A stretch of DNA of 64,000 nt from Actinomycetota bacterium (GTDB lineage: Bacteria; Actinomycetota; Actinomycetes; Nanopelagicales; Nanopelagicaceae), in the NCBI GenBank assembly GCA_005800815.1, contig SYEK01000013.1, forward strand, positions 19 through 64,018. The letters run 5' to 3'. The notes under the pieces were generated by a model. The model did no database searches, was not told the DNA's origin, and saw only the letters and a program-made list of their open reading frames with translations. The position numbers and the translations under genes are program-made. Below, piece by piece: positions 7,121-64,000 of the stretch (positions are counted from its first letter, which is position 1; every line of letters starts with the position of its first letter).

Positions 7121-7125
7121 TGTCT

Positions 7126-35349: not shown

Positions 35350-36312
35350 TTACTTGCCGAGCCAGGCTTTGACTTGATCGGCATGGGCATCAATCCACTT
35401 CTGGGCCGCTGCCTCTGGTGTTGTTCCGTTTTCAATGTCAAGAGCAACCATGTTCTGATCATCATTTGTCCACTTGAAGTTCTTGATCAAAGTCGTAAAT
35501 GATGAATTACTATCATTTAACTTCTTAGAGATTAACTTGATCAGTGGAGTCGATGGATAATCAGTGAGTCCACTAGCTTGGGCTGCATCGGTCCAATCAT
35601 TTGCAGGGAACTTGACATGTCCCTTCTCAAGATTGGGCATCTTGGCGTGAAGAGTCCATGGCTGCCAGGCATAACCAATAAATGGCGTCTTATTAGCCTC
35701 AGCCTTGGTGAAACCATCGATGAGAGCGACCTCTGAACCTGCGAAGATGACCTTGAAGTTCAACTTGTTAGCAGAGACCATCTTTTCACCGATTGTTGTG
35801 TATCCCGGAGGACCTTCATACCAGGCGCCCTTACCACCTGAATCTGCGTTCTTAAAGAGATCGGCATACTTTCCAAGGTTCTTGGAGTCGACGATATCTG
35901 GATACTTCTCGACCATCCACGGTGCAACATAGACGCCGATGAGGCCAACGTTTCCACCATCTCCGACATCAATGACAGCGCCTCTATCACTCCACTCTTT
36001 CCAACGTCCACCGCCCCAATCTTCGATGAGCACATCGATTGTTCCGGCCTCCATGGCATCATAAGTAATCGGACCTTCATCCAATGTGGTCTGAGTGATC
36101 GTGCAACCTAACTCCTTCTTAGCAATCTCGGCAACTACCTGTGCCGATGCTGTGTAACCATTCCATGCATGCATGGCAATTGCCCAGGATCCGCAGTCGC
36201 CCGATGCCTCGCCGGCAGAGTCATTAACACTGCTGCTGCACCCTGAAACAACCAAGGCAGCTGCGATAACAGCACTAAGTACTGCAGAGCTAGGCCTAAA
36301 TAATGACTTCAT
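35350..36312 (-). CDS. proX: Glycine betaine/choline ABC transporter substrate-binding lipoprotein
   Basis: 320 aa with lipobox VSGC. OpuAC/ProX-type sequence with an aromatic-box Trp-rich region. Confidence 0.8.
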   Translation of the reverse strand: MKSLFRPSSAVLSAVIAAALVVSGCSSSVNDSAGEASGDCGSWAIAMHAWNGYTASAQVVAEIAKKELGCTITQTTLDEGPITYDAMEAGTIDVLIEDWGGGRWKEWSDRGAVIDVGDGGNVGLIGVYVAPWMVEKYPDIVDSKNLGKYADLFKNADSGGKGAWYEGPPGYTTIGEKMVSANKLNFKVIFAGSEVALIDGFTKAEANKTPFIGYAWQPWTLHAKMPNLEKGHVKFPANDWTDAAQASGLTDYPSTPLIKLISKKLNDSNSSFTTLIKNFKWTNDDQNMVALDIENGTTPEAAAQKWIDAHADQVKAWLGK

Positions 36313-36407
36313 TAACCCTCCTCAGAGTTTGAATTTGACCTTAGCCTAGGGTGTAAACCGAGTTCGAGGTAGATGGCGCAGGGTTCAAGGGCCACTTTTT
36401 CCCTGGC

Positions 36408-38339
36408 TTAACTGGAGCGATGGGCCCTGGCCTGCATGATCCGATCAAAAATTACCCCCAGAAGCAGGATGCAGGCACCGGCTATGAGGCCCTTTCCCTG
36501 GAGCTCTGGCTTTGAATTTCCCACGATCACCAGATAGCCCAACCCGCCTCCACCTACAAAACCACCGATAACCACGACGGAGAGCACATAGATTAGACCT
36601 TGATTGGTCGCCAGCACGATAGTTTTCCTGGCTGCCGGCAGTTGAACCTTCGTGATGATCTGTCGAGTCGTCGATCCCGCTGCAGTTGCCGCCTCAATAA
36701 GTGTTGGCGGTACCGCGCGAATCCCCTCACTCACAAGCTTGACGACAACAGGGGTTGCATAGATGACGCCGGTAAGGATTGCAGTAAATCGAGTGGGACC
36801 AAAAAGTCCCAAGATCGGCACGAGATATACGAAGGCTGGAAGGGTCTGAGCAGCATCTAAGAGGGGCCGTAAAGAGCGCTGCGCCCTATCACTGCGCCCC
36901 ACCCAGATTCCCAGTGCCATTCCAAAGATCATCGTAAGTAAAGTGCCGACAATGGTTTGGGTCAGGGTCAGCATCGCCTCAAACCAGAGACCTGAAAGGA
37001 CGATACACATGGCCAACACACCGGCGAGAACTCCTGTGCGCACTCCACCCATTACTAGAGCCAGACAAATGATCATCGAGACCGTCAAATACCAGGGAGA
37101 TTGAGAGAGAATAGTCTCCAGAGGGTTAAGAATCGAGTATGAGATCAGATCTTTCAATCCATCGGTAAAGATAAAGAGATTACCTAATATCCAAGCCGTT
37201 ACATTATTGGTCAGCTCTTGGACTTGTCGGGCAACCATGAACTCTTGAGGCCAGATAGCGGCCCAAAGAAGGGTGCGGGAGATCACGACACTTATAATCG
37301 CAAGGACTCCTGCGATCACTAAGGTCAGGCGCTTTCGCTTTATATCCTGGGCCGTTGGGGGGATAAATGACTCTTGACGCTTTGCCGCCGCACTCGTGCT
37401 GCGATCCATCAAAATTGCCAGGAAAACCACGGCAATTCCAGCTACAAAGCCTTGGCCTACGTTTCGAATAATAAGTGCTGAGACCACCGGGTTGCCAAGT
37501 CCAGGGGCCCCAATAAGGGCTGCGATAACCACAAAGGAGAGAGCGGCCATCACCGTTTGATTGATCCCAACGACGATCATCTGCTTTGCCATGGGCACCT
37601 GTACTTTTCGCAGCGTCTGGCTTGAGCTCGAACCCATGGAGACAGATGCCTCTACAGGTGCAGGATTGAGAGTTCTGATGGCATGGGAAGTGATGCGTAT
37701 ACAGATTGGAATCGCATAAATCATCGTCGCAATCGTCGCCGATGCCGCTCCAATCATGAACACGAGTGCGATTGGTGCCATATAGACAAGCGTGGGTAAA
37801 ATCTGAGCGAGATCTAAAAATGGAGTCATCACTTTCAATGCACGATCAGATAGCCCTGCCCAAATACCCAAAGGCAGACCAAAGGCCAATGAGAGCAGGA
37901 CCGCTGCAAGAGTAAGGGCGATCGAATCCATCGTGAACTGCCACATACCCAATGCTCCGCAACCCAGAAGAAGACAGACAGATAAAAGAGCGGTCTGCCA
38001 CTGGCTTGTCGCAAAGACTACGAAGGCGACTATCCCCACAACGCCAAGCCAGCCAATGATTGGTATAACCGAATTGGGGGCTGGAACAGCGATGAGATCT
38101 CTTATGGCTTGGACAAAACCATCAATCACTCCACGGATAGGATTGAAAAAATAGATGAAGACTGTACTCTCCGTGCGATTACCCCGGATCGATAAGGCCC
38201 TCTCTCCAACAAAGGATGTAAAAGAGGTGTTCTCATAGGTGGCGATTTGTAATGTATGCCTGCCATTGAGAATGCGAGCCAAGAAAATCCAGAGTACTAC
38301 CGAACCCAAAAGTAGATAGGATTTTCTAACACGCATCAA
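36408..38339 (-). CDS. proW: Glycine betaine/choline ABC transporter permease (tandem fused ProW/OpuAB domains)
   Basis: 643 aa containing two BPD-type permease modules. Confidence 0.85.
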
Positions 38340-39364
38340 GTGACTCCGGCAATCAAGCGCAATACATCCTCACTGGAGACAACGCCCAAGGCCTTTCCAT
38401 TATCGCTCACACGTACGGGCTTATGTGTCTGCAGTATGACCTCTGCAGCATCGCGGATAATCATGGTCGCTGCCAGCTCTGGGCCATCTAGAGCCTCACC
38501 TGAGTGCGATTTCCGAGCCAGATATTTGAGTGTGAGAACGTGGGACTTCGGGATGTCACGCACAAAGTTGGCAACGTAATCATCGATAGGATTTGCCACC
38601 AAATCCTCGGGGGTCCCCGTCTGGACAATGGCTCCATCGCGCATGATTGCGATGCGATCTCCGACTTTTACCGCCTCAGATAGATCATGGGTGATAAAGA
38701 CCATGGTCTTTCCCAACTCATGGTGCAGGCGGATGATCTCCTGTTGCATATCCCTTCGGATCAAGGGATCAAGTGCGCTAAAGGGCTCATCCAAGAAGAG
38801 AACCTGTGGGTCAACGGCCAATGCACGGGCAAGTCCAACGCGCTGTTGCATTCCACCTGATAACTGCTCCGGATATGCATGTGAATATCCCTGTAGTCCA
38901 ACCAGTTCGATGACCTCATTGGCACGGCCATGGCGCTCGGCTTTTTTCACCCCATTGATCTCCAGGGAGTATGCGATGTTATCGATTACCTTACGGTGTG
39001 GCAGTAAGCCAAAGTGCTGAAAGACCATTGAGAAACGGCTCTTACGAAGTTCGCGCAGACGTGCTGCATCAACGCTGAGCACATCCTCACCCTCAAAGGT
39101 CAGGGTCCCAGCGGTGGGTTCGATCAAGCGGGTCATACAGCGCACGAGAGTTGATTTACCTGAGCCAGATAGCCCCATGACAACGAAGACCTCACCAGGG
39201 GCGACATCGAATGAGACATCACGAACTGCGATCGTGTTTCCGGTTTGGGCGCGCAGCTCTGATCGCGTCAAATCGGCCAGGGAAGAGCCCATAACTTTCT
39301 CGGGATTGCTACCAAAGACCTTCCAGAGATTTTTTACCGAGATCATAGGTGCCTCAGTGCCCAC
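38336..39364 (-). CDS. proV: Glycine betaine/proline ABC transporter ATP-binding protein
   Basis: 342 aa. [25 protein letters not shown]-terminal CBS-like tail. 4-nt overlap with the permease gene. Confidence 0.9.
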
Positions 39365-39381: not shown

Positions 39382-40857
39382 TTAGAGATCTTTGAACCAC
39401 CCAGATCGACTAGGAGCATTGTTGGTCCAAATGTGCTTGATTTCAAGGTACTCACCCAGGCCATGCTCACCCAATTCACGGCCGATCCCTGACTGCTTGT
39501 ATCCGCCCCACTCTGCCGCCGGGCGGTAAGGCCCAAAGTCATTGACCCAGATAGTGCCGTGGCGAAGAGCGCTAGCCACGCGGGCACACTTTTGAGAATC
39601 ACCGCTCCAGAGCCCACCTGATAATCCAAAGACGGTGTCGTTGCCGATTGCGATCGCCTGAGCCTCGGTATCAAAGACCTCTACCGTCATGATGGGACCG
39701 AAGGACTCATCTTGGACACATGACATAGCACCCGTGCAGTTATCAAAGACGGTAGGCAAGAAATACCAGCCCTTGGCATGCTCTGCGCTCTGACTTCGCT
39801 CTCCACCGACTAATAATGTGGCGCCCTCTGCAATTGCCTTCTCGACATATCTCAAGACGTTGGCCAAGTGCGCCTTGCTGATGAGTGGACCAGTCTCTGC
39901 CTGGTGATCATGAGGACCACCGAGTCTGATTTTTCCAGCCCGACGCACGATCTCCTTGACTACCTGATCGTGCACTGATCGCTCAACTATTAATCGGGTA
40001 CCGGCTGAACAGACTTGGCCTGAGTGTAGAAATGCCGCGGTGACTGCATTATCGATTGCAGCATCGAGGTCGGCATCGGCAAAGATAATATGTGGATTTT
40101 TACCACCAAGTTCGAGTGCTAACTTCTTAATAGTGCTGGCAGCTGCCTTCATGATGGTCTGACCTGTTGTTAACCCCCCGGTAAATGAGATCAGATCGAT
40201 GCGGGGATCATTGATCAGTAAGCTCCCGAGAACTGAGCCAGGACCAAGGATTAAGTTGGCAACTCCTTTGGGGGTGCCGGCCTCTTCGATGATCTTGGTC
40301 AAGGCGATAGCACTCTGTGGTGTTAACTCACTTGGTTTGATGATGAAGGAGCAGCCTGCCGCTAAGGCCGGTGCGACCTTCCAGGCGATCTGCAGCAGCG
40401 GATAGTTCCAGGGACCTATCAAGCAGGCAACACCCAAGGGCTCATGAACGATCCGGCTTGAGACATGAGCCATACCCACATCCACGCTACGCCCATGCTC
40501 TCTTGCCCCCAGGGCTGCAAAATGCCTAAAAGTTGCAACGACATCGGCCACGTCGTACTGAGCTTCGATCAAACGCTTGCCCGTATCATCACTTTCTTTA
40601 CGGGCTATCACATCGGCATCGCGCTCTAATAGATCGGCGATCTTTGCAACTAACTCACTACGCTGCTTGAAACTCCAGGAGGTAAATACTCCTGAATCAA
40701 AAGAGGCTCGTGCGGCGGCGATGGCATCAAGCACATCAGTTTGGCTCGCCTGAGAGACGGTGGCGAGGACGCTTTGATCGTGTGGGCTTTGGACATCGTG
40801 AGATCCACCATCTGATGCCTCTTGCCAGAGACCGTTGATGTAGAGCGTTGCGACCAT
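39382..40857 (-). CDS. betB: Aldehyde dehydrogenase, probable betaine-aldehyde dehydrogenase
   Basis: 491 aa with ALDH motifs (ELGGKNP, GQVCSAGTR). The assignment to betaine aldehyde rests on context. Confidence 0.75.
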   Translation of the reverse strand: MVATLYINGLWQEASDGGSHDVQSPHDQSVLATVSQASQTDVLDAIAAARASFDSGVFTSWSFKQRSELVAKIADLLERDADVIARKESDDTGKRLIEAQYDVADVVATFRHFAALGAREHGRSVDVGMAHVSSRIVHEPLGVACLIGPWNYPLLQIAWKVAPALAAGCSFIIKPSELTPQSAIALTKIIEEAGTPKGVANLILGPGSVLGSLLINDPRIDLISFTGGLTTGQTIMKAAASTIKKLALELGGKNPHIIFADADLDAAIDNAVTAAFLHSGQVCSAGTRLIVERSVHDQVVKEIVRRAGKIRLGGPHDHQAETGPLISKAHLANVLRYVEKAIAEGATLLVGGERSQSAEHAKGWYFLPTVFDNCTGAMSCVQDESFGPIMTVEVFDTEAQAIAIGNDTVFGLSGGLWSGDSQKCARVASALRHGTIWVNDFGPYRPAAEWGGYKQSGIGRELGEHGLGEYLEIKHIWTNNAPSRSGWFKDL

Positions 40858-40864: not shown

Positions 40865-42301
40865 TTAATCTAGTTGGCTTTTGCGCATCGCCACAAACTC
40901 ATCGAGCTCTTGACGCATGCCTGAATCCATATCTGGAGCAACATAATCCTCTAACTTCTTGAGATAGATCTCGGCTGCGCGAGTCTTCGTATCTTTACCA
41001 CCAAGACGTGTCCAACGCTCAAAGTTATCGCTATTGGTCAAGAACGGTCGATAGAAGCAGTTACGAAAGCGCTCCATGGTGTGGGCTGCGCCCAAGAAGT
41101 GGCCACCATGGCCGACCTCCAAATGTGCATCGAAGGCCAATGATTCGACGTTGAACTCTAGAGGGGTGAACTCAGTCATGAGTGATTGCAGGATCTCAAT
41201 ATCTAGAACAAACTTCTCATAACACGATACAAGGCCACCTTCGAGCCAACCTGCCGTATGCATGACCCAGTTGGTGCCAGAGAGGAATGTGGGCATCATC
41301 GTCATCATCGTTTGGTAGGCAGATTGTGCATCAACGGTCTGTGAGGAGTTCAAACCGCCGCCGCCACGAAATGGCAGGTTGAAACTGCGGGCGATCTGAC
41401 CAGTGCATAGCAGCCCAATTCCGGACTCAGGTGTGCCAAATTGAGGAGAGCCAGATTGCATATCTATATTTGAAAGAAAGGAGCCAAAGACGATTGGGCA
41501 TCCCGGGTTCAGTGTCTGTGCAAGTGCAATCCCCGTTAATGCTTCGGCAATCTGCTGAGCTAATGTTGCTGGAATCGTCACTGGACTCATAGCACCCATG
41601 AGCAAGAAAGGAGTGACAACAACTGGCTGACCAGCTAAGACATACTCGCGCATCGAATCCAACATACGATCATCCCAGCGCAGTGGTGAGTTGCAATTTA
41701 CCAGTGAAATTAACGCTGGTGTTTCCACGATCGCACCACGCCCACCGTGAATAATCTCAGCGATCTTGATGACATCTTTCGCGTTATCTGCAGTCACAAC
41801 GTTGCCCATGAAGAACTTATCGGTCAATGTGGCCGCGGCATATGCCATGTCCAAGTGACGCGAATCTAGGGAGAGATCATTGGGTTCGCAGACAACCCCA
41901 CCGACGCTATCAAGTGCCTCAAATGATTGTGAGAGTTTACAAAAGTTCTCATAGTCCTTAAATGTCGCATCACGGCGAAGGTCACCTTCACGAACAAATG
42001 GAGGGCCATAGACGCTACCAAAGACCATTGAGTTACCACCGATGTGGACATTGTTCAAAGGATTGCGAGCGCGCAGGTTGAATTCACTCGGAGCAAGTGC
42101 ACACTGCTTAAGTACCCAATCGGGATCAAACTTCACGTTCTCGCCCTCCACCGTCTGCCCGGCCTGGCGCAAAAGATCGATCGCCCACGGCGACATGAAC
42201 TCGATGCCGATCTCAGAGACGATTCGCCTCCATCCCAGTGTCAATGTGGCCATCGACTCCTGGCTTAAAATCTCATATCGCGGCATCCTATTTTCAAACA
42301 T
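40865..42301 (-). CDS. MttB-superfamily (trimethylamine methyltransferase family) protein, non-pyrrolysine type; probable glycine betaine:corrinoid methyltransferase
   Basis: 478 aa, uninterrupted (no in-frame TAG). MttB family pattern from RYEILSQESM... to FERW. Confidence 0.8.
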   Translation of the reverse strand: MFENRMPRYEILSQESMATLTLGWRRIVSEIGIEFMSPWAIDLLRQAGQTVEGENVKFDPDWVLKQCALAPSEFNLRARNPLNNVHIGGNSMVFGSVYGPPFVREGDLRRDATFKDYENFCKLSQSFEALDSVGGVVCEPNDLSLDSRHLDMAYAAATLTDKFFMGNVVTADNAKDVIKIAEIIHGGRGAIVETPALISLVNCNSPLRWDDRMLDSMREYVLAGQPVVVTPFLLMGAMSPVTIPATLAQQIAEALTGIALAQTLNPGCPIVFGSFLSNIDMQSGSPQFGTPESGIGLLCTGQIARSFNLPFRGGGGLNSSQTVDAQSAYQTMMTMMPTFLSGTNWVMHTAGWLEGGLVSCYEKFVLDIEILQSLMTEFTPLEFNVESLAFDAHLEVGHGGHFLGAAHTMERFRNCFYRPFLTNSDNFERWTRLGGKDTKTRAAEIYLKKLEDYVAPDMDSGMRQELDEFVAMRKSQLD

Positions 42302-42358
42302 GTGAGACTCCTTTGCCCCTTCTGTTCAGGCGACACGCAGCAGGATACTCCTATATAG

Positions 42359-42374
42359 TGGAACGGTGGTTCCA
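42359..42374. promoter_or_regulatory. Candidate IclR operator: inverted repeat TGGAAC-N4-GTTCCA in the mttB/iclR divergent spacer
   Basis: Perfect 6-bp arms at 42359-42364 and 42369-42374, with a third half-site-like ATGGAAT at 42379-42385. It lies in the 93-bp spacer between divergent genes. Confidence 0.4.
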
Positions 42375-42394
42375 TATGATGGAATACTAGAGAG

Positions 42395-43171
42395 ATGAAA
42401 GGTAAGACGATGAGTGAGTTAGTCAATGGAACTCAGGCGATTGATCGCGCGTGTGCCCTTCTTATTCACATCCTTGAGGCAGCCACACCCCCGATTTTAT
42501 CGGATATTGCCCGTGATCACGAGCTGCCAAAGAGCACAACATCGAGAATGTTAAGTGCGCTCGAAAGAGCAGGTCTGATACGCCGAGATCGTACAGGAGC
42601 CTTCATCGCTGGAGATGTTCTCACCCAGTTCGCACGCTCACAAAACCAGGATTCGATATTAGTTGCCCGTATGCGTCCAGTTCTAGAAAAGCTTGCTCTG
42701 AGCACAGGTGAGACTGCAAATTTGGCGATTGCAAGCAATGGTGAGATGAGATTAATCGATCAAGTCGATTCACATTATCTCTTAGGGGCCACCAACTGGG
42801 TCGGCAAGGTGATTCCTTTCCATGCATCGGCCCTGGGCAAGGTCCTTCTAGCAAACGGCGTTGCAACAATTCCGGCTGGTAAGTTGGAACGGCTGACAAG
42901 TAAGACGATTACGACACGTCCTCGCTTATTGGCCGAGTTAGAGGATGTGCGCAAACACGGATATGCCATCATCTGTGACGAGCTTGAAGAGGGCTTGGTT
43001 GCAGTTGCTGCACCTGTTCGTGAAGATGATGGACGTGTAGTCGGGGCAATCTCAATCTCGGGTCCATCTGGGCGATTGAGTGCGCGCGATTTAGCAAGGA
43101 TTGGCGATGTCATAATTGACGAGATTCACACACTCCAGATAAGTACGCATGGAAAGATAGGTGCAGCATGA
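42395..43171 (+). CDS. IclR family transcriptional regulator
   Basis: 258 aa with an N-terminal wHTH (LPKSTTSRMLSALERAGLI) and an IclR effector domain. Confidence 0.85.
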   Translation: MKGKTMSELVNGTQAIDRACALLIHILEAATPPILSDIARDHELPKSTTSRMLSALERAGLIRRDRTGAFIAGDVLTQFARSQNQDSILVARMRPVLEKLALSTGETANLAIASNGEMRLIDQVDSHYLLGATNWVGKVIPFHASALGKVLLANGVATIPAGKLERLTSKTITTRPRLLAELEDVRKHGYAIICDELEEGLVAVAAPVREDDGRVVGAISISGPSGRLSARDLARIGDVIIDEIHTLQISTHGKIGAA

Positions 43172-43833
43172 CTCATGATGAAATCATCAAGGGCCTCTTT
43201 GATGAAACTTTAGTTGGGAACGCTCCTGCAGTTCTAGCCCTGACCAACCAAGGGATTGCCGATGGAATGACCCCTGGCACGATCCTCTTTGATGCACTCA
43301 TTCCCGCGCTGGAAGAGGTCGGTGCGCGCTTTGAACGCGGAGATTTCTTCGTTCCCGAGATGCTCGTTTCAGGTAAGGCGATGTCAGGGGCTCTGAACGT
43401 GCTTCGCCCTCTTCTGGCTGAGACTGGCGCCGAAACAGTTGGTACCTATCTGATGGGCACAGTCAAAGGCGATGTGCACGATATCGGTAAGAATTTGGTC
43501 AACATCATGCTTGAGGGCGCTGGCTTTGACGTCATTGATCTTGGCGTACAGGTTTCACCTGAAAAGTTCATCGCTGGAATCCTTGAACACAAGCCAGATA
43601 TCGTCGGCATGTCAGCATTCTTAACGACAACTATGCCGATGTTCAAAGTAAATATTCATGAGATTACCAAGGCTGGTCTGCGTGATCAGGTATTCATTAT
43701 GGTGGGCGGGGCACCTGTGACACAAGAGTATGCCGATGTCGTGGGCGCAGATGGTTTTGCCGCCGATGCATCGACCGCTGTGCGTGTTGCCAAAGATCTC
43801 ATCGCCAAAAAACGATCATCGGTCTCTGTTTAA
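43168..43833 (+). CDS. Cobalamin-binding corrinoid protein (methyltransferase cognate, MtgC/MttC-like)
   Basis: 221 aa. B12-binding DxHxxG motif GDVHDIGKN plus an N-terminal helical cap domain. ATGA overlap with iclR. Confidence 0.85.
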   Translation: MTHDEIIKGLFDETLVGNAPAVLALTNQGIADGMTPGTILFDALIPALEEVGARFERGDFFVPEMLVSGKAMSGALNVLRPLLAETGAETVGTYLMGTVKGDVHDIGKNLVNIMLEGAGFDVIDLGVQVSPEKFIAGILEHKPDIVGMSAFLTTTMPMFKVNIHEITKAGLRDQVFIMVGGAPVTQEYADVVGADGFAADASTAVRVAKDLIAKKRSSVSV

Positions 43834-43842
43834 GGCGTTCTC

Positions 43843-44223
43843 ATGTTGAAAAAACTTCTCCCTTTAGTCGAACATGCTCTGAAGGCTCCTGTTTGGGACT
43901 GTCGCATGTGTGGTCAGTGCGTTTTGCACTCCACGGGAATGACCTGTCCGATGACCTGTCCTAAGACTCTGCGCAACGGTCCGTGTGGTGGTGTGCGAGA
44001 GAATGGGAACTGTGAAGTAAAACCTGAGATGAAGTGCATCTGGGTAAAGGCTTACGATCGCACCATCTCACTTCCACTACCAAAAGTGTGGAAAGAGCAT
44101 TACAACGATATACGCCCACCTGTTGACATGCGGCTTGAAGGCTCATCATCCTGGATTAACTTAGTCACCAAGCGCGATCAACAGACCCCGGCTGGTTGGT
44201 CCTTAAAAGATGGAAGCCACTAA
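43843..44223 (+). CDS. Methylenetetrahydrofolate reductase C-terminal-like (MetV-like) Cys-rich protein
   Basis: 126 aa. CRMCGQCVLHSTGMTCPMTCPKTLRNGPCGG is typical of the MTHFR_C / MetV family. Its stop shares one nucleotide with the metF ATG. Confidence 0.75.
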   Translation: MLKKLLPLVEHALKAPVWDCRMCGQCVLHSTGMTCPMTCPKTLRNGPCGGVRENGNCEVKPEMKCIWVKAYDRTISLPLPKVWKEHYNDIRPPVDMRLEGSSSWINLVTKRDQQTPAGWSLKDGSH

Positions 44224-45119
44224 TGTCAGTTCTGCGTGAGAAATTAGAGCATACAGATGATTTGGTCTTTACTGCTGAGTTTCCATCCATCGATGGTGGT
44301 GGGATGGCAGCTGTTGAGAAAAACGCTGCACGGTTAGCGCCTTGGTTTGATGCGGTCAATGCAACTGATAATCCAGCTGCCCATGCCCACGCCTCAAACA
44401 CAACGACTGCGATTGCGATGAAAATGCATGGCTTGGAGCCGATTATGCAGATCGTCTGTCGTGACAAAAATCGCCTTGCCATCCAATCCGACATGATGGG
44501 TGCATCCCTGCATGGCATCACCAATATCTCCCTACTCACTGGAGATGATGTGACGGCAGGTGACGAACCTCAGGCTCGCAGGGTCTTTGACGTCGATGGT
44601 ATTCAAGCCATCAATATCGCTCGGGGAATGGCCACTGGGAGCTATCTATCGGGGAGAAAGATCGATCCAGCCCCTGACTTTTATATCGGGGCAGTTGAAA
44701 ATGCAGGGGCTCCACCTTTTGATTATCGAATCCAAAGGGCACTGAAGAAGTACCGTGCCGGTGCCAACTTCTTACAACTTCAAATCTGTTATCACCCCGA
44801 TCGCCTTGAGGCTTTTTGTAAAGGTGCCGCAGAGCTCGTACCCGACCTCAAACTCATTCCAGCCGTAGCGTTGGTCAAAAGCGCCAAGTCATTAAACTTC
44901 ATGAATGATAAGATTGCAGGCATCGATGTACCTGCAGCCTCAATAGCTCGCATACAAAGTGCTAGTGACCAAAGAGAGGAGGTCTATCAGCTAACTCTTG
45001 AACTAGCCAAGCACGCGCTATCACTGCCCGGTGTCCGTGGACTCCACATAACAGATTTTCGCCATGATGATTCCCTAGCGCAATTCATGTCAGATCTTGC
45101 CAGAGTACCAAGTTACTAA
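44223..45119 (+). CDS. metF: Methylenetetrahydrofolate reductase
   Basis: ORF 44196..45119. The likely start is the ATG at 44223 (MSVLREKLEHTDDLVFTAEF). MetF TIM-barrel pattern. Confidence 0.8.
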   Translation: MSVLREKLEHTDDLVFTAEFPSIDGGGMAAVEKNAARLAPWFDAVNATDNPAAHAHASNTTTAIAMKMHGLEPIMQIVCRDKNRLAIQSDMMGASLHGITNISLLTGDDVTAGDEPQARRVFDVDGIQAINIARGMATGSYLSGRKIDPAPDFYIGAVENAGAPPFDYRIQRALKKYRAGANFLQLQICYHPDRLEAFCKGAAELVPDLKLIPAVALVKSAKSLNFMNDKIAGIDVPAASIARIQSASDQREEVYQLTLELAKHALSLPGVRGLHITDFRHDDSLAQFMSDLARVPSY

Positions 45120-45133
45120 TAAGGAGCCTTGAA

Positions 45134-46009
45134 ATGCATACAGTTTTATCATCACCAGGCAAGACGGTCACAATCGGGCATGATCAACCCTTTTGTATTA
45201 TCGGAGAGCGCATCAATCCAACGGGTCGTAAAAAGTTTCAACTACAGCTGCGCGCTGGTGATCTAAGTGCAATTGAAAAAGATGTCCATGACCAGATTGC
45301 CGGGGGTGCAGACGTACTAGATGTCAATATGGGCGTGCCTCTGACCGATGAGCCTGCACTCCTAGGTAAAGCCATCACCCTGATCCAAAGTATTACCGAT
45401 ACCCCCATCTGTATCGACTCTTCGATCATTGAGGCCTTACAAGTAGGCCTTGAGACATATCAGGGCAAAGCCCTGGTCAATAGCGTCACCGGCGAAGATG
45501 ATCGTATGGAGTTAGTCCTTCCTCTCATAAAAAAGCATGGCGCTGGCATCATCGCACTTCCCAATGATGAGACTGGGATTCCGGCAACGGCCGCTGAGCG
45601 GATGGTGATTACTGAAAAGATCGTCCGCACCGTTGAGAGGCATGGTATTCCTCTTGAGGATTTAGTGATTGATCCCTTGGCAATGACCGTCGGGGCAGAT
45701 CCTGAAGCGGTGAAAATTACCCTTGAGACAATCTATTTAATCCGTGAAAAATGGGGGCTGAATATGACGCTCGGTGCATCAAATATCTCTTTTGGTCTGC
45801 CCTACCGCCATGCTCTCAATGCTGCTTTCTTGCCTGCTGCCATGTCACATGGCTTAACAAGTGCGGTGATGGATGCTCGAACTCCGATGATCGTCGAGTC
45901 CGTTCGCGCCACAGACTTGCTCCTTGGACTAGATCCATGGGGATCAAACTGGATCACACGCTTTAGAGCGATGGAGGCCGCCAAAGCGGCGGCAGGAACC
46001 AGTGCATAA
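45134..46009 (+). CDS. Methyltetrahydrofolate:corrinoid methyltransferase (pterin-binding, MtgA/AcsE/MtrH-like)
   Basis: 291 aa. IIGERINPTG and DVNMG pterin-binding barrel motifs. Confidence 0.8.
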   Translation: MHTVLSSPGKTVTIGHDQPFCIIGERINPTGRKKFQLQLRAGDLSAIEKDVHDQIAGGADVLDVNMGVPLTDEPALLGKAITLIQSITDTPICIDSSIIEALQVGLETYQGKALVNSVTGEDDRMELVLPLIKKHGAGIIALPNDETGIPATAAERMVITEKIVRTVERHGIPLEDLVIDPLAMTVGADPEAVKITLETIYLIREKWGLNMTLGASNISFGLPYRHALNAAFLPAAMSHGLTSAVMDARTPMIVESVRATDLLLGLDPWGSNWITRFRAMEAAKAAAGTSA

Positions 46010-46041
46010 AAATTACTAAAAAGGAGCTCGATCCATCCCTT

Positions 46042-47916
46042 GTGCCCAATCACGATGGCACCGGCAGGGTCAAACTTGCCTTCAGATCCCTTGAGAAAGA
46101 TAACTCCGTCTCATCTGAGAAGACAATCACTGTACCAACTGGTGTGAGTGCATTTGATGCTGCCTCCTGGAACGGTATTGCGATCGATTCGACGTGTGGA
46201 GGATATGGAACCTGTAAAAAGTGCCGGATTAAAATTACCGGTGGAGATGTCTCACCATCGAAGTTAGATTTTCGTGCCTTTTCAGAGAGTGAGATCAAAG
46301 AGGGCTGGCGATTGGCATGCTTGGTGCGTACCAGCACAGATGTATCTATCGACGTACCACCACTGACTACTCGCCCTAAAGCTGCAACTGTCGGAGTCGG
46401 CCGCCAGGTCATCTTGCGTCCTGCCGTGCAGAAGCGATATGTCGAGTTAGAAGAGCCGACTTTGCATGATCAACGCACTGATCTCGTGCGCCTCTTCGAT
46501 GCGATCGAGGATATTGAGGGCACCGCATCACTTGCCGCTATGCGAAATATCTCTCGAGTGATGCGTAGCTCAGATTTTAAGGTCACAGCAGTCTTTGTCG
46601 ATCAGGATTTTATCGATCTCGAACCTGGCGATACCACTGCCTTTCGTTACGGCATCGCCTACGACTTGGGAACAACTACCGTCGTTGCCACTCTCTTAGA
46701 TTTAAATACTGGTACTCCCCTGAGTGTTAAATCGATTCTCAACAAACAGCAGCCATTCGGTGCCGATGTGATCACGCGTATCAGTGCCACCATGCTCGAT
46801 CCTGCAGCCCTTGAGAAACTCTCGGCTTTGGCCCAAGAAACGCTCAATCAGCTCACCCAAGAGGTCTGTAGTGAGGCTGGTATCGATCCACTTCATGTCT
46901 ATGAGATTGCCATCGCTGGAAATGCGACGATGATGCATCTGCTGCTCGGTATAGATCCAGAGCCATTGGGCGTCGCCCCATTTATTATGTCGGCGGCCGG
47001 CTTTCCAGATGTTGATGCCCATGAGATTGGGATCGCTATCCATCCACGGGCAAAGGTGGTTATTTTTCCATCACTTGGTGCCTATGTTGGCGGTGACATC
47101 ATCGCTGGGGCTTTGGCATCTGGCATGGATCGTGACAAGAGATTGCGCCTCTTCATCGATGTTGGGACTAACTGTGAAATCATCCTTGGAGATGGTGACA
47201 AAATTTTGGCAACTGCCGCTCCGGCTGGTCCCGCCTTTGAGGCGGCAAGCATCAAGTGTGGGGTGCGCGCGGCATCTGGTGCGATCGAGACCATCAAGAT
47301 TCAAGATGGAGAGTTAATAATCGGAACGATCGATGACGCTCCTGCAATTGGTATATGCGGCTCTGGTTTGGTCGATGCATGTGCCGCTCTTTTTGCTATC
47401 GGTCTTCTTGATCACTCGGGAAAGTTCGTGGATGAAGAGAGGGCACAACGAGTCGCACCGACTCTAGCCGATCGGCTGGTCCTGCGTGAAGATGAGCGGG
47501 TATTCGTCCTATCATGGAGCAAGCAGGTGGGAGATTCCTCAGACTGCGTCTTTTTGACTCAGCGTGATGTGCGTGAGCTCCAATTCGCCAAGGCGGCGAT
47601 CGCAACTGGTTGGGCGCTACTACTCGAAGAGTTCGATGTTGCAGAGTCTGAGATTCAACAGGTCCTACTCGCCGGCTCCTTCGGCTCTTATCTCTCCCCC
47701 GCCTCTGCGATCAAGATCGGTCTCGTACCTAAAATCTCAGTTATGCGGATCTTATCGGCTGGAAATGTGGCAGGAGAGGGGGCAAAGATGGTTCTGCTCT
47801 CGGCCCCAGAGCGTAACGGTGCAGCCGCACTTCTTGATGGGATTGATTATGTGGAGCTATCTGATCGCGCAGATTTTAACGATAAGTTTGTGGATCGCCT
47901 AGCCTTCCCGGCATGA
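46042..47916 (+). CDS. Corrinoid reductive activase (RACE/RamA-like: 2Fe-2S ferredoxin domain plus ASKHA ATPase domain)
   Basis: 624 aa, GTG start. N-terminal CGGYGTCKKC...LAC cluster and a C-terminal DLGTTT ASKHA phosphate motif. Confidence 0.8.
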   Translation: MPNHDGTGRVKLAFRSLEKDNSVSSEKTITVPTGVSAFDAASWNGIAIDSTCGGYGTCKKCRIKITGGDVSPSKLDFRAFSESEIKEGWRLACLVRTSTDVSIDVPPLTTRPKAATVGVGRQVILRPAVQKRYVELEEPTLHDQRTDLVRLFDAIEDIEGTASLAAMRNISRVMRSSDFKVTAVFVDQDFIDLEPGDTTAFRYGIAYDLGTTTVVATLLDLNTGTPLSVKSILNKQQPFGADVITRISATMLDPAALEKLSALAQETLNQLTQEVCSEAGIDPLHVYEIAIAGNATMMHLLLGIDPEPLGVAPFIMSAAGFPDVDAHEIGIAIHPRAKVVIFPSLGAYVGGDIIAGALASGMDRDKRLRLFIDVGTNCEIILGDGDKILATAAPAGPAFEAASIKCGVRAASGAIETIKIQDGELIIGTIDDAPAIGICGSGLVDACAALFAIGLLDHSGKFVDEERAQRVAPTLADRLVLREDERVFVLSWSKQVGDSSDCVFLTQRDVRELQFAKAAIATGWALLLEEFDVAESEIQQVLLAGSFGSYLSPASAIKIGLVPKISVMRILSAGNVAGEGAKMVLLSAPERNGAAALLDGIDYVELSDRADFNDKFVDRLAFPA

Positions 47917-48497
47917 GCATCGGGATAGTGGCCTGTGGGGCCCTAGCCACCCATATCGGCGATATCGTAGAAGAGAACTCTCTTGATGTGGTTATCTATC
48001 CCCTTCCGCCACTTCTGCATAACCGTCCTGAAAAAATCGCAGGTGAGGTGGATGCTCTCTTACATCAGATCAAAGATAGGCACAGTATCTGTGCCGTGGC
48101 ATATGCCGACTGTGGAACGTATGGGGCTCTCGATGAGGTCATTGAGCGACACCATGTGAAGCGTCTTGATGGAAACCACTGCTATGACATCTTTGCCGGA
48201 AAGAGTGAGATAGAGCGCTTGATGGCCCAAGAGGCTGGGACCTATTTCTTGACTGATTTCCTAGTCAAATCCTTTCATCGAAGCGTCATCGTGGAGCTTG
48301 GTCTAGATAGATTCCCGCATCTTCGTGATGATTACTTCAAGAACTACACACGCATCATCTGGCTGGCCCAAGTGCGCACCCCAGAGTTGGAGTTAGCCGC
48401 TATGGAAGTGGCCAAGGAGATTGGACTCCCACTTGAGATTCAATCTGCCAGCTACAGTGCTCTTACTACACAGGTGCTAGAGCTGATCTCAAATTAA
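47913..48497 (+). CDS. DUF1638 domain-containing protein
   Basis: 194 aa, ATGA-coupled to the activase gene. The sequence pattern (ACGAL...YADCGTYGALD...NHCYD) matches DUF1638 as I recall it. Confidence 0.65.
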   Translation: MSIGIVACGALATHIGDIVEENSLDVVIYPLPPLLHNRPEKIAGEVDALLHQIKDRHSICAVAYADCGTYGALDEVIERHHVKRLDGNHCYDIFAGKSEIERLMAQEAGTYFLTDFLVKSFHRSVIVELGLDRFPHLRDDYFKNYTRIIWLAQVRTPELELAAMEVAKEIGLPLEIQSASYSALTTQVLELISN

Positions 48498-48513: not shown

Positions 48514-50178
48514 CTAGAACAGGCCAACGACCTTTCCATCTACATAATCAATTCGCTCGGCCGCAGGAGTTTTAGGTAGGCCAGGCATCGTCATGACATC
48601 TCCGCAGATCATGACGATGAACTGGGCACCTGCGCAGAGTTTTACCTCGCGAATATCGATGGTGTGATCACTTGGTGCCCCTCGAAGGCTGGCATCGGTA
48701 CTGAAGGAGTACTGGGTCTTTGCCACACAGATCGGAAAGTGGCCATAACCAGATGCCTCGAACTCCTTCAACTTATTGATCACCTTGGCATCAGCGCTGA
48801 CCTGCTTTGCTCCATAGATTTTCATCGCAACGGCAGTGAGCTTCTCCCACAGACTCATACCATCCTCATAGACAAAGTTCATCTGATTCTCTTGCTCACA
48901 GAGCTCAACGACGGCATGAGCCAGATCCGCTGCTCCTGGGCCTCCATCGGCCCAGTGCGTTGCAAGAACGATCTTGACACCCATCGCCTCCACACGAGAT
49001 CGTAGAAGATCTATCTCAGCTTTGCTATCACTTGTGAAGTGATTAATCGATACGACTAAAGGCAGATTGTAGACACTCGTAATATTCTTGACATGTCGCT
49101 CCAAATTGACGATACCAGCCTCAAGGGCGGCTAAATTCTCCGTGGTGATGCTCTTGAGATCAGCGCCACCGTGATATTTGATTGCTCGCACTGTAGCAAC
49201 GAGCACACAGGCAGAGGGGCGAAGCCCCGACTTGCGACATTTGATATCGATGAATTTCTCAGCACCTAGATCGGCCCCAAAGCCAGCCTCGGTCACGACA
49301 TAATCAGCTAACTTCATAGCCGATTTTGTTGCAACGACTGAGTTACAGCCATGTGCGATATTTGCAAAGGGTCCCCCATGGATGAAGGCTGGAGTACTCT
49401 CCAGGCTTTGAACAAGATTTGGCTGAAAGGCATCTTTGAGAATGACCGTCATCGCACCCTGGGCATTGAGATCACTGGCCAAAACTGCAGTCTTATCACT
49501 CTTATAGCCAACAACAATCCTTCCAATCCTCTCTTTCAAGTCCTCAATGGATGTGGCAAGGCAGAAGATAGCCATAATCTCTGATGCAACAACGATGTCA
49601 AAGCCATCACTTCGAGGATAGCCATTACCGACGCCACCGATTGATTGAATGATTTCACGAAGAGCACGATCGTTCATATCGATAACACGCTTCCACACCA
49701 CCCGGCGAATATCGATTGCGAGCTCGTTACCGTGGTGAATATGGTTATCAAGAAGGGCTGCAAGGAGGTTGTTGGCAAGGGCTATGGCGTTGAAATCCCC
49801 AGTGAAGTGCAGATTGATATCCTCCATAGGGACAACTTGGGCAAAGCCACCACCGGCGGCCCCACCCTTCATACCAAAGACAGGACCCAGAGATGGCTCG
49901 CGCAGGGCAATCATGGCGTTTTTACCGATATGACGCAGTGCATCACCTAGGCCGACTGTGGTCGTTGTCTTTCCCTCCCCTGCAGGAGTAGGGCTGATTG
50001 CAGTAACGAGAATTAGCTTTGATCCTTTGCGCTCTGGGAGTGCATCGAGGTACTTCACATTTACCTTGGCCTTGTACCTGCCATAGGCCTCAAGATTCTC
50101 ACTATCAATCCCAAGTGCTGCAGCAATTTCGTTGATGGGCTTGATTCTTGCAGCCTGTGCAATTTCGATATCAGACAT
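48514..50178 (-). CDS. fhs: Formate--tetrahydrofolate ligase
   Basis: 554 aa. [16 protein letters not shown]-loop and full-length FTHFS family similarity. Confidence 0.95.
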
Positions 50179-50180: not shown

Positions 50181-51140
50181 CTATCCCTTGGCTACACGGA
50201 TTGCGCTAGTCAGTGCAGGAATGACTTGGTGCAGATCCCCGATAATCGCATAATCGGCATAACGTAGGATGGGGGCCTCAGGATCGGTATTGATGACAAC
50301 AATCGTCTTACTATTCTTCATCCCAGCGATATGTTGCATCGCCCCTGAAATTCCGGCGGCTATGTATAGATCGGGCGCAACTTTCGTACCGGTCTGACCC
50401 ACTTGCTCTGCATGCGGGCGCCATCCTGAGCTAGTCACCACGCGCGAGCATCCCACTGTCCCACCAAGAAGGGTTGCAAGCTCCTCTAAATTTCCAAAGC
50501 CATCGGGCCCTCCCACACCACGACCACCTGAGACGATGACCTTTGCATCATTGAGGCTTACTCCACCCTTTGATTCCCCAGCATCGCGGCTGAGGATCTT
50601 TACTACAGAGTCTGCCGGCTCGAGTGCAGGCTCGAACTGCACAACCGATGCGACTGGCCCACCCAATGATTGTGGCTCAGTGGAAAAACTTAGGATCGTT
50701 GCAACCAATAGTTGTGAGTGAACGAGTGCTGACTCAATCAAGTTGCCGGCCCATCGTGCCCGGAGCACGTTGTGAGGCCTGCCCAATGTGATCTCTGAAC
50801 ACTCGGCGGCCATTGGAATATCAAGGAAGGCGGCAAGGTGGGCTAACTGTTCATTGCCGCGTGGGCTTCCAGCGGCCAAGACTGCAGCCGGGTTGAGCTT
50901 TGCAACAAGATCTTTGAGTGCCCGGCCTGAGGCCATGGGTGTGTAATCACCAATTTCACTATGGGATGCAACGTGGAGCACCTTTGCCCCATATTCACCG
51001 GCGATACCAGCGAGTATTGCGCCATCGCCTCCAATGACCACTGCCTGGACATCCTGGTCTAATTTTTGAGCTGCAGTCAATGCACGCAGTGATAGAGGAT
51101 CTATCTCTCCACGATCGTGATCGATCAAAACTAGAATCAT
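50181..51140 (-). CDS. etfA: Electron transfer flavoprotein subunit alpha
   Basis: 319 aa with the C-terminal FAD-binding motif [15 protein letters not shown]. Confidence 0.9.
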
Positions 51141-51895
51141 CTCAGGGCTCCAATCTGCCTCAAGACATCGACTAAGGCAGGTACTGCATCTGCACCTTTT
51201 CCAAGAATCTGTGCGCTCTTATCTTTTGATGGAGCAAGGGCCAGTGTCACTTTTTCCAGCTTGGGGACACGCACCTCAGCTTTTTTCATATCTACAATCT
51301 TTTTTCGTGCCTGCATTCGTCCTGGTACCGAAGGGTAACGGGGGATATTCAGGCCATCTCGCACGGTGACAATCGCCGGAAGCGGAGCCTGATAACGCTC
51401 ACGCCCGTTTGCAACGACACGATCACACGTGACCCTTCCATTCTCAACTTTCATAGATTTTACATTCGTGACGATGGGTAGAGCCAAGGCATGAGCCATA
51501 CGAATATGGATTTGATAACCTGCACTATCTGCCGACTCTGCACCAAAAATAATCAGATCGAACTTCGTCTCCTCAGCCTTGATCGCATCCACCAAGGCAG
51601 CTGCCGTCCCCTGCGGATCCCACTCTTGCCCATCAGTCTCAATGAGCACTGCGCGTGTAGCACCGATCGCCAATTGAGAGCGCAACTGCTCTTCAGCCTC
51701 ACTTGGGCCAAGAGTCAAAAGAGTAAGAGTGCCACCCATCTGCTCGACTAACTGAACTCCAGCTTCAACAGCGTTCTCCTCATGTGGACTGATACCAAAA
51801 CCCAGATGTTTAGTCTCGATATCACGTGCATCTGGGGTAAGGATCAGAGTTCCTCCTGCGAGAGGGACTCTTTTCAAGCAGACAAGAACATCCAT
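51137..51895 (-). CDS. etfB: Electron transfer flavoprotein subunit beta
   Basis: 252 aa. MDVLVCLKRV... ETF beta pattern. ATGA overlap with etfA. Confidence 0.9.
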   Translation of the reverse strand: MDVLVCLKRVPLAGGTLILTPDARDIETKHLGFGISPHEENAVEAGVQLVEQMGGTLTLLTLGPSEAEEQLRSQLAIGATRAVLIETDGQEWDPQGTAAALVDAIKAEETKFDLIIFGAESADSAGYQIHIRMAHALALPIVTNVKSMKVENGRVTCDRVVANGRERYQAPLPAIVTVRDGLNIPRYPSVPGRMQARKKIVDMKKAEVRVPKLEKVTLALAPSKDKSAQILGKGADAVPALVDVLRQIGALR

Positions 51896-54447: not shown

Positions 54448-55110
54448 TTATAAGGATTTCCGAATCGATGCTTCAAAGCCCTCAATGTGATCACGCATCG
54501 CCTTTGCCGCGGCCTTAGCATCGGCGCTGGCGATTGCCTCTAGTAGCACCTGATGTTCAATGACAGCCTCAGTCAAACCCGCGACGCGCTCAAGTGCTAA
54601 GAACCAGATTCGTAACGCATGTGCATAATAATTATCTAAAGCGGCAGCCAGAAAGTCATTGTGAGTGCACTGATAGATGTGATGATGAATCCGCTGATCA
54701 AGACCGATCAGTGTGGCCATATCAAGATTGCCCTTGAGAGCCTTTATCTCGGCAATAAGAGCCTGGGTGATAATGTGATCTGCTGCGCTCGATCGTGTGG
54801 CCGCAAGTTCGGCTGCTTTGATCTCAAGGACTGCCCGCGTCTCAGAGAGTGCAGAGAGATTGTGCACATCCACGCGAGAGACGAACATTCCACGACGTGG
54901 ATAGACCTCGACTAACTTCTCATTTGCAAGCAGGCGCAACGCCTCACGAATGGGGGTACGACCCACTCCGAGTGTGCTGATCAACTCACTCTCACTAATG
55001 AGAGAGCCGGGCTCAAGCTCTAAGGTGATGATCATGGAGCGAATCTGGCTGTAGGCCTGCTCTGAGAGCGAGGAGCTCTCACGGCCAAGAATGGGGATGA
55101 CCTGACTCAT
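54448..55110 (-). CDS. GntR family (FadR/FCD subfamily) transcriptional regulator
   Basis: 220 aa with a wHTH (GVGRTPIREALRLLANEKLV) and an FCD domain. Confidence 0.85.
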   Translation of the reverse strand: MSQVIPILGRESSSLSEQAYSQIRSMIITLELEPGSLISESELISTLGVGRTPIREALRLLANEKLVEVYPRRGMFVSRVDVHNLSALSETRAVLEIKAAELAATRSSAADHIITQALIAEIKALKGNLDMATLIGLDQRIHHHIYQCTHNDFLAAALDNYYAHALRIWFLALERVAGLTEAVIEHQVLLEAIASADAKAAAKAMRDHIEGFEASIRKSL

Positions 55111-63866: not shown

Positions 63867-63869
63867 ACG

Positions 63870-63942
63870 TAGCCCCGAAGGGATTCGAACCCTCGTAGCT
63901 GACTTGAGAAGCCAGAGTCCTAGGCCGCTAGACGACGGGGCC
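63870..63942 (-). tRNA. tRNA-Glu (anticodon CUC)
   Basis: The 73-nt reverse-strand sequence GGCCCCGTCGTCTAGCGGCCTAGGACTCTGGCTTCTCAAGTCAGCTACGAGGGTTCGAATCCCTTCGGGGCTA folds into a full cloverleaf by hand. It has a 7-bp acceptor stem with G1-U72, a D stem GTCT/GGAC, an anticodon stem CTGGC/GTCAG with loop TTCTCAA, and a T arm GAGGG-TTCGAAT-CCCTT. No encoded CCA. Confidence 0.9.
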
Positions 63943-64000
63943 GTGCCTTTTTTGGAGCTTATGTAACTAGGACAAAACATATTCAGTTGTAGAGCTGTAC

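Follow-up and report, generated by a model that had tools for sequence, protein, structure and literature searches.

We analysed a stretch of 64,000 nucleotides from the forward strand of contig SYEK01000013.1 (positions 19 to 64,018; assembly GCA_005800815.1), an actinobacterium of the Nanopelagicaceae. The whole stretch is called the window below. The analysis was centred on positions 40865-48497, which carry the genes of a predicted cobalamin-dependent system for the demethylation of glycine betaine. A preliminary description had proposed a complete module at this site: a methyltransferase of the non-pyrrolysine MttB type, a corrinoid protein with a DVHDIG motif, a methyl-tetrahydrofolate (methyl-THF) methyltransferase, a RACE-type activase, a DUF1638 protein, MetV/MetF and an IclR regulator. 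A check of open reading frames (ORFs) and Pfam domains found all of these intact, with strong family matches (Table 1). The genes are named here after the MtgBCD system with which they are compared.

The gene order is mtgB <> iclR-mtgC-metV-metF-mtgD-RACo-DUF1638, where <> indicates divergent transcription. Stop and start codons overlap at iclR/mtgC (ATGA), metV/metF (by one base) and RACo/DUF1638, and these genes are therefore considered to be translationally coupled. The G+C content of the cluster agrees with that of the adjoining genes.

Homologues were sought using one genome per GTDB species, and a synteny table was generated with tblastn. This yielded 591 relatives of the MttB-family protein. 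The best 80 of the 591 (69-97% identity) are all from Actinomycetota or uncultured organisms, mostly Nanopelagicales. The nearest, at 76-97% identity, are encoded by metagenome-assembled genomes (MAGs) named Candidatus Planktophila, Nanopelagicaceae or Actinomycetes, in keeping with the streamlined actinobacterial context suggested initially. With families clustered at 50% identity, the nearest cluster representatives are named only Dormibacterota, Alphaproteobacteria and Clostridia. Practically all sufficiently flanked loci (about 60 species, with MtgB identity ranging from 97% to 69%) show the order BADH-mtgB <> iclR-mtgC-metV-metF-mtgD-RACo-DUF1638, where BADH is a betaine aldehyde dehydrogenase-like gene. 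Chance would not produce the same order in about 60 species-level genomes.

The two operons diverge from an intergenic region of 93 bp. This includes promoter-like -35/-10 sequences (42330-42359) and an inverted repeat, TGGAAC-N4-GTTCCA (42359-42374), followed by a third half-site, TGGAAT (42380-42385). The inverted repeat has a single match within the window. Of 74 related loci, about 60 retain the composite motif TGGAAC-N4-GTTCCA-TAT-N2-TGGAAC, with MtgB identity as low as approximately 70%, and this conservation makes it a strong candidate for an IclR operator. Its partner is presumed to be the IclR protein encoded by the first gene of the plus-strand operon; the 253-codon gene call used for this protein was taken from a near-identical contig.

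Table 1. Coordinates, strand and supporting matches of the predicted features in the window
Feature	Coordinates	Strand	Domains and matches
Copper (topaquinone) primary-amine oxidase, O2-dependent	31739..33622	-	Cu_amine_oxid, E=6.9e-149; PRK11504 789 > cut-off 651
BetA choline dehydrogenase, GMC family	33623..35287	-	TIGR01810 809.5 > cut-off 732; GMC_oxred_N + GMC_oxred_C
OpuA-type ABC transporter for betaine or choline (ATPase, fused permease, OpuAC binding protein)	35350..39364	-	ABC_tran + CBS, BPD_transp_1, OpuAC
BADH-like aldehyde dehydrogenase, directly downstream of mtgB	39382..40857	-	Aldedh, E=3.4e-159
mtgB-like gene, predicted glycine betaine:corrinoid methyltransferase, non-pyrrolysine MttB superfamily	40865..42301	-	MTTB PF06253, E=1.7e-178; 478 aa
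Divergent control region, predicted IclR operator	42330..42385	.	Promoter-like site + inverted repeat
IclR-family regulator, 253 aa from second ATG; first gene of operon	42410..43171 (mechanical ORF from 42395)	+	HTH_IclR + IclR_C
mtgC-like corrinoid (cobalamin-binding) protein, 221 aa	43168..43833	+	B12-binding_2 + B12-binding; GDVHDIGKN motif
MetV-like Cys-rich small subunit of methylene-THF reductase	43843..44223	+	PF12225/DUF5981, E=1.9e-26; CRMCGQC...CPMTCP...NGPCGG
MetF, divergent methylene-THF reductase, 298 aa	44223..45119 (or from 44196)	+	PF02219, E=2.1e-23
mtgD-like methyl-THF:corrinoid methyltransferase, pterin-binding TIM barrel	45134..46009	+	Pterin_bind
RACo/RACE-type ATP-dependent reductive activase, N-terminal [2Fe-2S]	46042..47916	+	Fer2, RACo_linker, Raco_middle, RACo_C_ter
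DUF1638 protein, coupled to activase	47913..48497	+	PF07796, E=1.5e-22
Formate-tetrahydrofolate ligase Fhs	48514..50178	-	FTHFS, E=3.8e-260; PRK13505 886 > cut-off 652
Electron-transfer flavoprotein alpha + beta	50181..51895	-	ETF_alpha, ETF
Dimethylglycine oxidase/dehydrogenase homologue, 839 aa	51895..54414	-	DAO, FAO_M, GCV_T
GntR/FCD regulator heading the dimethylglycine dehydrogenase-etfBA-fhs block	54448..55110	-	GntR + FCD
Small PF13769 ('Virulence_fact') protein, coupled to mtgE-like gene	58063..58341	+	53.7 bits, E=2.7e-14
MtgE-like homocysteine-binding methyltransferase module	58341..59219	+	S-methyl_trans, E=3.8e-65

Among proteins of known structure, the mtgC-like protein is closest to Moorella 1Y80 (176 bits) and then to MttC (141 bits). 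It is 44-48% identical to corrinoid proteins adjoining mttB in Sinorhizobium meliloti, Paracoccus, Mesorhizobium and Aminobacter, and 34% identical to CmuA. The mtgD-like product scores above the cut-off for PRK07535, the methyl-THF:corrinoid/iron-sulfur protein methyltransferases (301.6 > 259), and matches the folate domain of MetH (145 bits) and MeTr/AcsE (129-135 bits) in the PDB. All four RACo Pfam domains of the activase exceed their gathering scores. It has the cysteine pattern C-x4-C-x2-C...C and aligns from end to end with RACo of Carboxydothermus hydrogenoformans (3ZYY, 338 bits). The MetV-like protein is 48% identical to MetV of the S. meliloti and Paracoccus clusters. Its partner MetF is distant from the canonical methylene-THF reductases of solved structure (E about 1e-4); it is predicted to oxidize methyl-THF to methylene-THF, while the reverse direction, for methionine synthesis, is possible. 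The DUF1638 protein is presumed, by analogy, to be a helper of corrinoid reactivation; its counterpart in Ruegeria pomeroyi is more abundant during growth on nitrogen-containing osmolytes (Mausz et al., PNAS 2025, PMC12478193).

The flanking genes frame these functions. On the minus strand, mtgB is followed by the BADH-like gene, an adjacency kept in nearly every related locus, and by the genes for the OpuA-type ATP-binding cassette (ABC) transporter, BetA and the copper amine oxidase. The top NCBIfam match of the BADH-like product is to the betaine aldehyde dehydrogenase model TIGR01804 (540 bits, below the cut-off of 669). The amine oxidase is the final clearly related gene of this block and is syntenic in only some of the relatives. 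Beyond DUF1638, a second minus-strand block has the order GntR - dimethylglycine (DMG) enzyme - etfB - etfA - fhs. The best PDB match of the DMG enzyme is the dimethylglycine oxidase of Arthrobacter (1PJ5, 515 bits over the full length), followed by mammalian dimethylglycine dehydrogenase (290 bits). The oxidative and O2-dependent neighbours described at the outset are thus well founded: BetA and the copper amine oxidase exceed their cut-offs, the DMG enzyme has 1PJ5 as its best match, and both subunits of the electron-transfer flavoprotein (ETF) are present. The predicted functions support an arrangement in which glycine betaine is made by the products of one flank and dimethylglycine is consumed by those of the other. 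The only step missing between them is the conversion of betaine to dimethylglycine, and this is the step that MtgB would catalyse.

The MttB-family enzyme and its predicted substrate

The mtgB-like ORF is free of in-frame stop (UAG) codons across its 478 codons and is consequently taken as a non-pyrrolysine member of the family. It scores only 243 bits against the pyrrolysine trimethylamine methyltransferase model TIGR02369 (cut-off 525). The best PDB matches of its product are the S. meliloti protein 4YYC (404 bits) and MtgB of Desulfitobacterium hafniense (2QNE/9YCE, 387 bits), while pyrrolysine-containing MttB (7XCL) gives 115 bits.

In D. hafniense MtgB, whose betaine site has been defined through mutagenesis and a structure with bound ligand, the cation-pi contacts come from Tyr97 and Phe356, and the carboxylate is bound by Arg312 and His348 (Picking et al., JBC 2026, PMC13080624). 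PDB and 98-sequence alignments place Y98, R312, H348, W352 and G356 of the window protein opposite Y97, R312, H348, I352 and F356 of the D. hafniense enzyme. Three of the four defined betaine-binding residues (Tyr97, Arg312 and His348) are therefore retained. The Y-R-H-W-G signature occurs in 121 of 121 sequences of the acI clade, and likewise in 4YYC and the Paracoccus proteins. Among the 98 family members, a tryptophan at position 352 is never accompanied by an aromatic residue at 356: 31 combine Trp352 with Gly356, 40 have a non-aromatic residue at 352 with an aromatic one at 356, and none has both. The pattern may reflect a relocation, from position 356 to 352, of the second aromatic residue in the cage around the quaternary amine, with Trp352 as a possible substitute.

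A rough neighbour-joining tree of the 98 sequences, without support values, divides them into two superclades. It was built without MtcB, MtpB, MtyB, MthB, SPO2108 and SPO2134 of R. pomeroyi and MtgB1 of Phaeobacter inhibens. The window protein falls in the Trp352/Gly356 superclade with 4YYC. The initial assignment as an MtgB-type enzyme consequently stands as far as the three binding residues are concerned; membership of the clade of D. hafniense MtgB does not. We infer betaine specificity from gene context and these three residues and not from orthology to a characterised enzyme.

In the closest group of paralogues (55% identity), Gln takes the place of Tyr97, and the surroundings are unrelated, without an adjoining BADH gene. 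This supports position 97, together with gene context, as a marker of betaine specificity. These paralogues (8001-9446 in loci L086/L087) adjoin a peptide-type ABC transporter, a hydrolase and a major facilitator superfamily transporter, and no corrinoid genes occur within 8 kb; they probably have another substrate specificity, and their corrinoid protein is probably encoded elsewhere. Plasmid matches of the MttB-family protein in Leisingera and on S. meliloti pSymA were considered as counterparts and dropped, being stand-alone paralogues in unrelated contexts.

The PDB entry 4YYC was deposited as a 'putative trimethylamine methyltransferase'. It is identical to the MttB-family protein of the S. 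meliloti cluster (11873-13447 in locus L085), which probably makes it the earliest structure of an MtgB of the aerobic type. Within the MttB superfamily, the Trp352/Gly356 signature defines a large branch in which 4YYC, an entry without an assigned substrate, is the sole solved structure.

Predicted pathway and alternatives

We consider it likely that the locus encodes the form that MtgBCD, the aerobic glycine betaine demethylase dependent on cobalamin, takes in acI (Candidatus Planktophila), and that it is located within a region for the conversion of choline to betaine and dimethylglycine. The methyl transfer from betaine and the dual role of MtgC and MtgD are proposed by analogy with the published systems, and the oxidative direction of MetF from the gene context.

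Choline or betaine would be imported by the OpuA-type transporter, and BetA and the BADH-like dehydrogenase would produce glycine betaine. MtgB would then transfer one N-methyl group of betaine to the Co(I) form of MtgC, releasing dimethylglycine, and MtgD would pass the methyl group of CH3-Co(III) to tetrahydrofolate. The resulting methyl-THF would be oxidized by MetV/MetF to methylene-THF and converted by FolD, for which the window has no gene, to formyl-THF, from which Fhs would free formate with a gain of ATP. Dimethylglycine would pass to the DMG oxidase/dehydrogenase encoded nearby, whose electrons would probably go to ETF. Oxidation of Co(I) to Co(II) is expected to occur often in an aerobe; the [2Fe-2S]/ASKHA activase would re-reduce the cobalt with ATP, helped by the DUF1638 protein. 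IclR would bind the TGGAAC-N4-GTTCCA operator between the two divergent operons. The flow from betaine through methyl-THF to one-carbon (C1) oxidation, the aerobic setting and the implied cobalamin dependence had already been put forward in the preliminary description and fit both the gene content and the published aerobic MtgBCD model.

A number of observations weigh against this assignment. The mtgB product is only 40-42% identical to D. hafniense MtgB or 4YYC. Phe356 is replaced by Gly (motif HTAGWLEGGL as against HTAGILQYFM), and the change F356L in the D. hafniense enzyme raised its Km several hundred-fold (Picking et al. 2026, PMC13080624). D. hafniense MtgB (DSY3156) lies in the other superclade, together with a protein of Clostridia annotated 'glycine betaine--corrinoid methyltransferase'. 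Two further components fall short of their specific models: the mtgC-like protein scores 197 bits with NCBIfam MtgC_2 (cut-off 370), and the activase is under the NCBIfam equivalog cut-off (AcsV, 432 bits < 800). The mtgE-like gene lies about 10 kb from the operon and outside it. Neither FolD nor a cobalamin transporter is encoded in the 64-kb window, nor is an electron acceptor for favourable oxidation of methyl-THF by MetVF, and no cobalamin riboswitch was found there (only a tRNA reached the Rfam gathering score).

A search for cobalamin acquisition genes and folD had been recommended as a check. The window itself supplies no transporter, riboswitch or FolD; the literature on acI genomes is favourable in this respect, since the first complete genomes lack B12 synthesis and carry an energy-coupling factor (ECF) module behind cobalamin riboswitches. 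By analogy with these genomes, cobalamin would be supplied from outside to the cells that carry the cluster.

Of the alternatives, the one that survives best retains the same corrinoid machinery with an MttB-family enzyme acting on another methylated amine (choline, proline betaine, carnitine, gamma-butyrobetaine or similar). The MttB superfamily has diverged to many quaternary amines (PMC12478193; PMC13080624), Phe356 is not kept, identity to the sole biochemically characterised MtgB is 40% and the two proteins belong to different superclades; in addition, the only NCBIfam match of the OpuAC binding protein is a weak one to the choline-binding model TIGR03414. Set against this, Tyr97, Arg312 and His348 are retained, the five-residue signature is the same as in the S. 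meliloti cluster protein, and paralogues that differ at position 97 occur in other contexts. Moreover, in about 60 species the gene shares an operon with betaine-making enzymes and lies near a DMG oxidase homologue. We regard this alternative as unlikely.

The assignment also extends to methionine synthesis. The MtgE-like product is closer to the homocysteine domain of MetH (166-168 bits) than to human betaine-homocysteine methyltransferase (BHMT; 54 bits), which places it apart from the single-enzyme BHMT type of human and SAR11. It scores 272 with PRK07534 (below the cut-off of 338), has the zinc-site cysteines (GANCG, GSCCG) and is 43% identical to 'bmt' of S. meliloti. As a second role, MtgC and MtgD would probably act with this MtgE module as a split methionine synthase, by analogy with the Rhodobacterales systems; this likely role and the mtgE-like gene were overlooked in the preliminary description. 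In the S. meliloti cluster, a homologue (48% identity) of the small PF13769 protein coupled to mtgE is encoded immediately before metV (17918-18220 in locus L085), and the protein may be an unrecognised accessory part of these systems.

As a second alternative, it could be argued that the plus-strand operon is mainly anabolic, consisting of a split methionine synthase and a forward-running methylene-THF reductase, and that MtgB feeds betaine methyl groups to methionine, in the manner of BHMT, with little C1 oxidation. The MtgE-like module with its intact zinc site is in the window, MetF usually works towards methyl-THF, and a canonical MetH or MetE was not seen within the 64 kb. However, the operon is transcribed divergently from a choline/betaine catabolic operon and presumably shares its regulation; its neighbours are fhs and the dimethylglycine dehydrogenase-etf genes and not methionine genes, with mtgE some 10 kb distant. 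A betaine/proline ABC transporter has been reported in just one of four complete acI genomes (acI genome literature), which hints at an accessory locus, unlike a sole methionine synthase. Anabolic and catabolic roles are also not mutually exclusive. A mainly anabolic operon appears to us quite unlikely.

A reading of the cluster as the remnant of an anaerobic pathway, recently transferred or in decay and unable to work in an oxic cell, is very improbable: Co(I) corrinoids and Fe-S proteins such as RACo and MetV are oxygen-sensitive and the machinery was known mainly from anaerobes until 2025 (Mausz et al., PMC12478193), but all ORFs are intact and the genes translationally coupled, the proteins are 69-97% identical in dozens of species with the operator also kept, the G+C content is that of the neighbours, and the same system works in aerobic Rhodobacterales.

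Starting from the MtgBCD assignment, a broader proposal can be made. In acI, B12 auxotrophs and the most abundant bacterioplankton of fresh water, a single MtgC/MtgD core would serve both betaine/choline catabolism and methionine synthesis, so that in lakes each would need external cobalamin; the enzymes of the large and mostly uncharacterised Trp352/Gly356 superclade would have a relocated aromatic residue; and the DUF1638 and PF13769 proteins would be conserved accessory parts. Taken as a whole this is tentative, and we hold it to be possible rather than probable.

Host and remainder of the window

acI actinobacteria can form a large share of the bacterial cells in lake surface water (PMC3526179). 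Their diet is known only in part, and it would come to include methylated osmolytes of algae if choline and betaine are turned into C1 units by a conserved, complete pathway. Such a pathway would also give a concrete reason for the vitamin B12 dependence of acI, and the compact operon is a convenient minimal set for reconstitution in vitro. A heliorhodopsin gene (25711-26475, plus strand; NF038020, 338 bits with a cut-off of 100), together with the oxidases, fits an aerobic, light-exposed actinobacterial host of sunlit water.

An identical MtgB protein is encoded in GCA_005792705.1. The contig concerned is 99.77% identical to the window across 21 kb and belongs to a sister strain; it is treated as a separate record because the identity is not complete. 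Since this 46-kb contig, with its exact MtgB, ends at approximately position 18017, the window was suspected of being composed of concatenated MAG contigs. This was ruled out, as the contig is only 99.77% identical.

Some other features of the window were recorded in passing. The G+C content is uneven across 1-19000 (65-71% at 1-2500, approximately 53-60% at 2500-5500 and 39-48% at 7000-19000) and is about 50% in the rest. The stretch of low G+C carries genes for a sugar ABC transporter, an enolase-superfamily enzyme, a PrpD-like protein, a gluconolactonase and five short-chain dehydrogenases/reductases. The end of the sister-strain contig is near the shift in composition. The shift could reflect a strain-variable island, horizontal transfer or mis-assembly. 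After betA and the amine oxidase, a fusion of a UbiA prenyltransferase and an alpha-beta-hydrolase is encoded at 30238-31722 (minus strand), followed by a 522-aa protein (28663-30231, plus strand) whose one match is a weak one to the C-terminal domain of Cu2-monooxygenases. A tRNA-Glu(CUC) at 63869-63942 (minus strand) is overrun by the mechanical ORF 63231-63980 (LysE family), whose true start must therefore lie further downstream.

Comparison with known systems

The preliminary description compared the locus with the MtgB systems of anaerobes. The component parts do agree; that the architecture is known only from anaerobes does not hold, as it has been shown in aerobic R. pomeroyi and P. inhibens. 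When R. pomeroyi is grown on betaine, MtgB-like proteins, MtgC, MtgD, MetF2, a RamA-like activase and a DUF1638 protein all increase, and mtgC and mtgD mutants are methionine auxotrophs that neither grow on betaine nor consume it. Mausz et al. propose that MtgBCD carries out demethylation while MtgCDE acts as a split methionine synthase. They also describe clustered genes in S. meliloti, SAR116, SAR324 and SUP05, with about 5% of the Tara mtgC reads assigned to Actinomycetota (PMC12478193). For P. inhibens, an mtgB1 knockout is described in a 2025 preprint (bioRxiv 10.64898/2025.12.19.695462). With the aerobic MtgBCD system published in 2025, the presence of an 'anaerobic' module in an aerobe is much less surprising.

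The locus resembles the aerobic MtgBCD(E) systems of Ruegeria, Phaeobacter and Sinorhizobium in having a PF06253 enzyme, a separate corrinoid protein, MtgD, an activase, a DUF1638 protein, a MetF paralogue and a separate MtgE, co-located with genes for DMG demethylation and C1 oxidation; the host is likewise aerobic and may be auxotrophic for B12. Alphaproteobacterial clusters, recovered by searching plasmid and chromid records with the window corrinoid protein, give a gene-for-gene match that extends to MetV and the PF13769 protein, with MetF upstream of MtgD. In Paracoccus methylovorus p1 the order is mttB <> B12-binding, DUF1638, MetV, MetF, methyl-THF:cobalamin methyltransferase, ASKHA protein. 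In S. meliloti Ak57 it is bmt ... mttB <> cobalamin-binding protein, DUF1638, formyltransferase, 'virulence factor', MetV, MetF, methyltransferase, ASKHA protein. Identities to the S. meliloti and Paracoccus proteins are 42-44% for MtgB, 44-46% for MtgC, 48% for MetV, 32-35% for MetF, 42-44% for MtgD, 31-32% for RACo, 37-38% for DUF1638 and 43% for MtgE.

The differences from these systems are those of host and organization. Here the host is a freshwater actinobacterium and the function is predicted, whereas theirs are marine and soil proteobacteria; protein identities are only 31-48%. All parts other than mtgE and mtgB lie in one IclR-headed operon with a conserved operator, and mtgB is in an operon with BADH, opuA and betA. 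Fhs adjoins the cluster, where S. meliloti has a formyltransferase.

The D. hafniense MtgB-MtgC-MtgA proteins form a glycine betaine:THF methyltransferase system (Ticak et al. 2014, as cited in PMC12478193 and PMC13080624). The likeness consists of a three-component corrinoid transfer from betaine to THF, an ATP-dependent activase and a TIM-barrel MttB fold that can be aligned from end to end. The window system differs in its 40% identity, its superclade, Gly356/Trp352, its aerobic host and the inclusion of MetVF, DUF1638 and IclR in the cluster. The activase has the four domains of Wood-Ljungdahl RACo (3ZYY/4C1N), namely [2Fe-2S], linker, middle and ASKHA, and MtgD matches MeTr/AcsE (Moorella 1F6Y). 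Its partner, however, is a small MtgC-type corrinoid protein and not the corrinoid iron-sulfur protein, there are no carbon monoxide dehydrogenase/acetyl-CoA synthase genes in the window, and the host is aerobic. With the pyrrolysine-containing MttB of methanogens (7XCL) the enzyme has PF06253 in common, but there is no in-frame UAG and the match is of only 115 bits.

No report of the pathway in acI, Planktophila or Nanopelagicales was found in the searchable literature, which is weak evidence of absence since most subscription journals lay outside the search. The 2025 marine finding would be extended to fresh water and to another phylum, and the mechanism already proposed for aerobic MtgBCD would be left unchanged; the result is ecologically useful and mechanistically expected. 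The cluster is best described as the known aerobic MtgBCD system in a new host (a new phylum, fresh water and a compact IclR operon), and not as a new mechanism.

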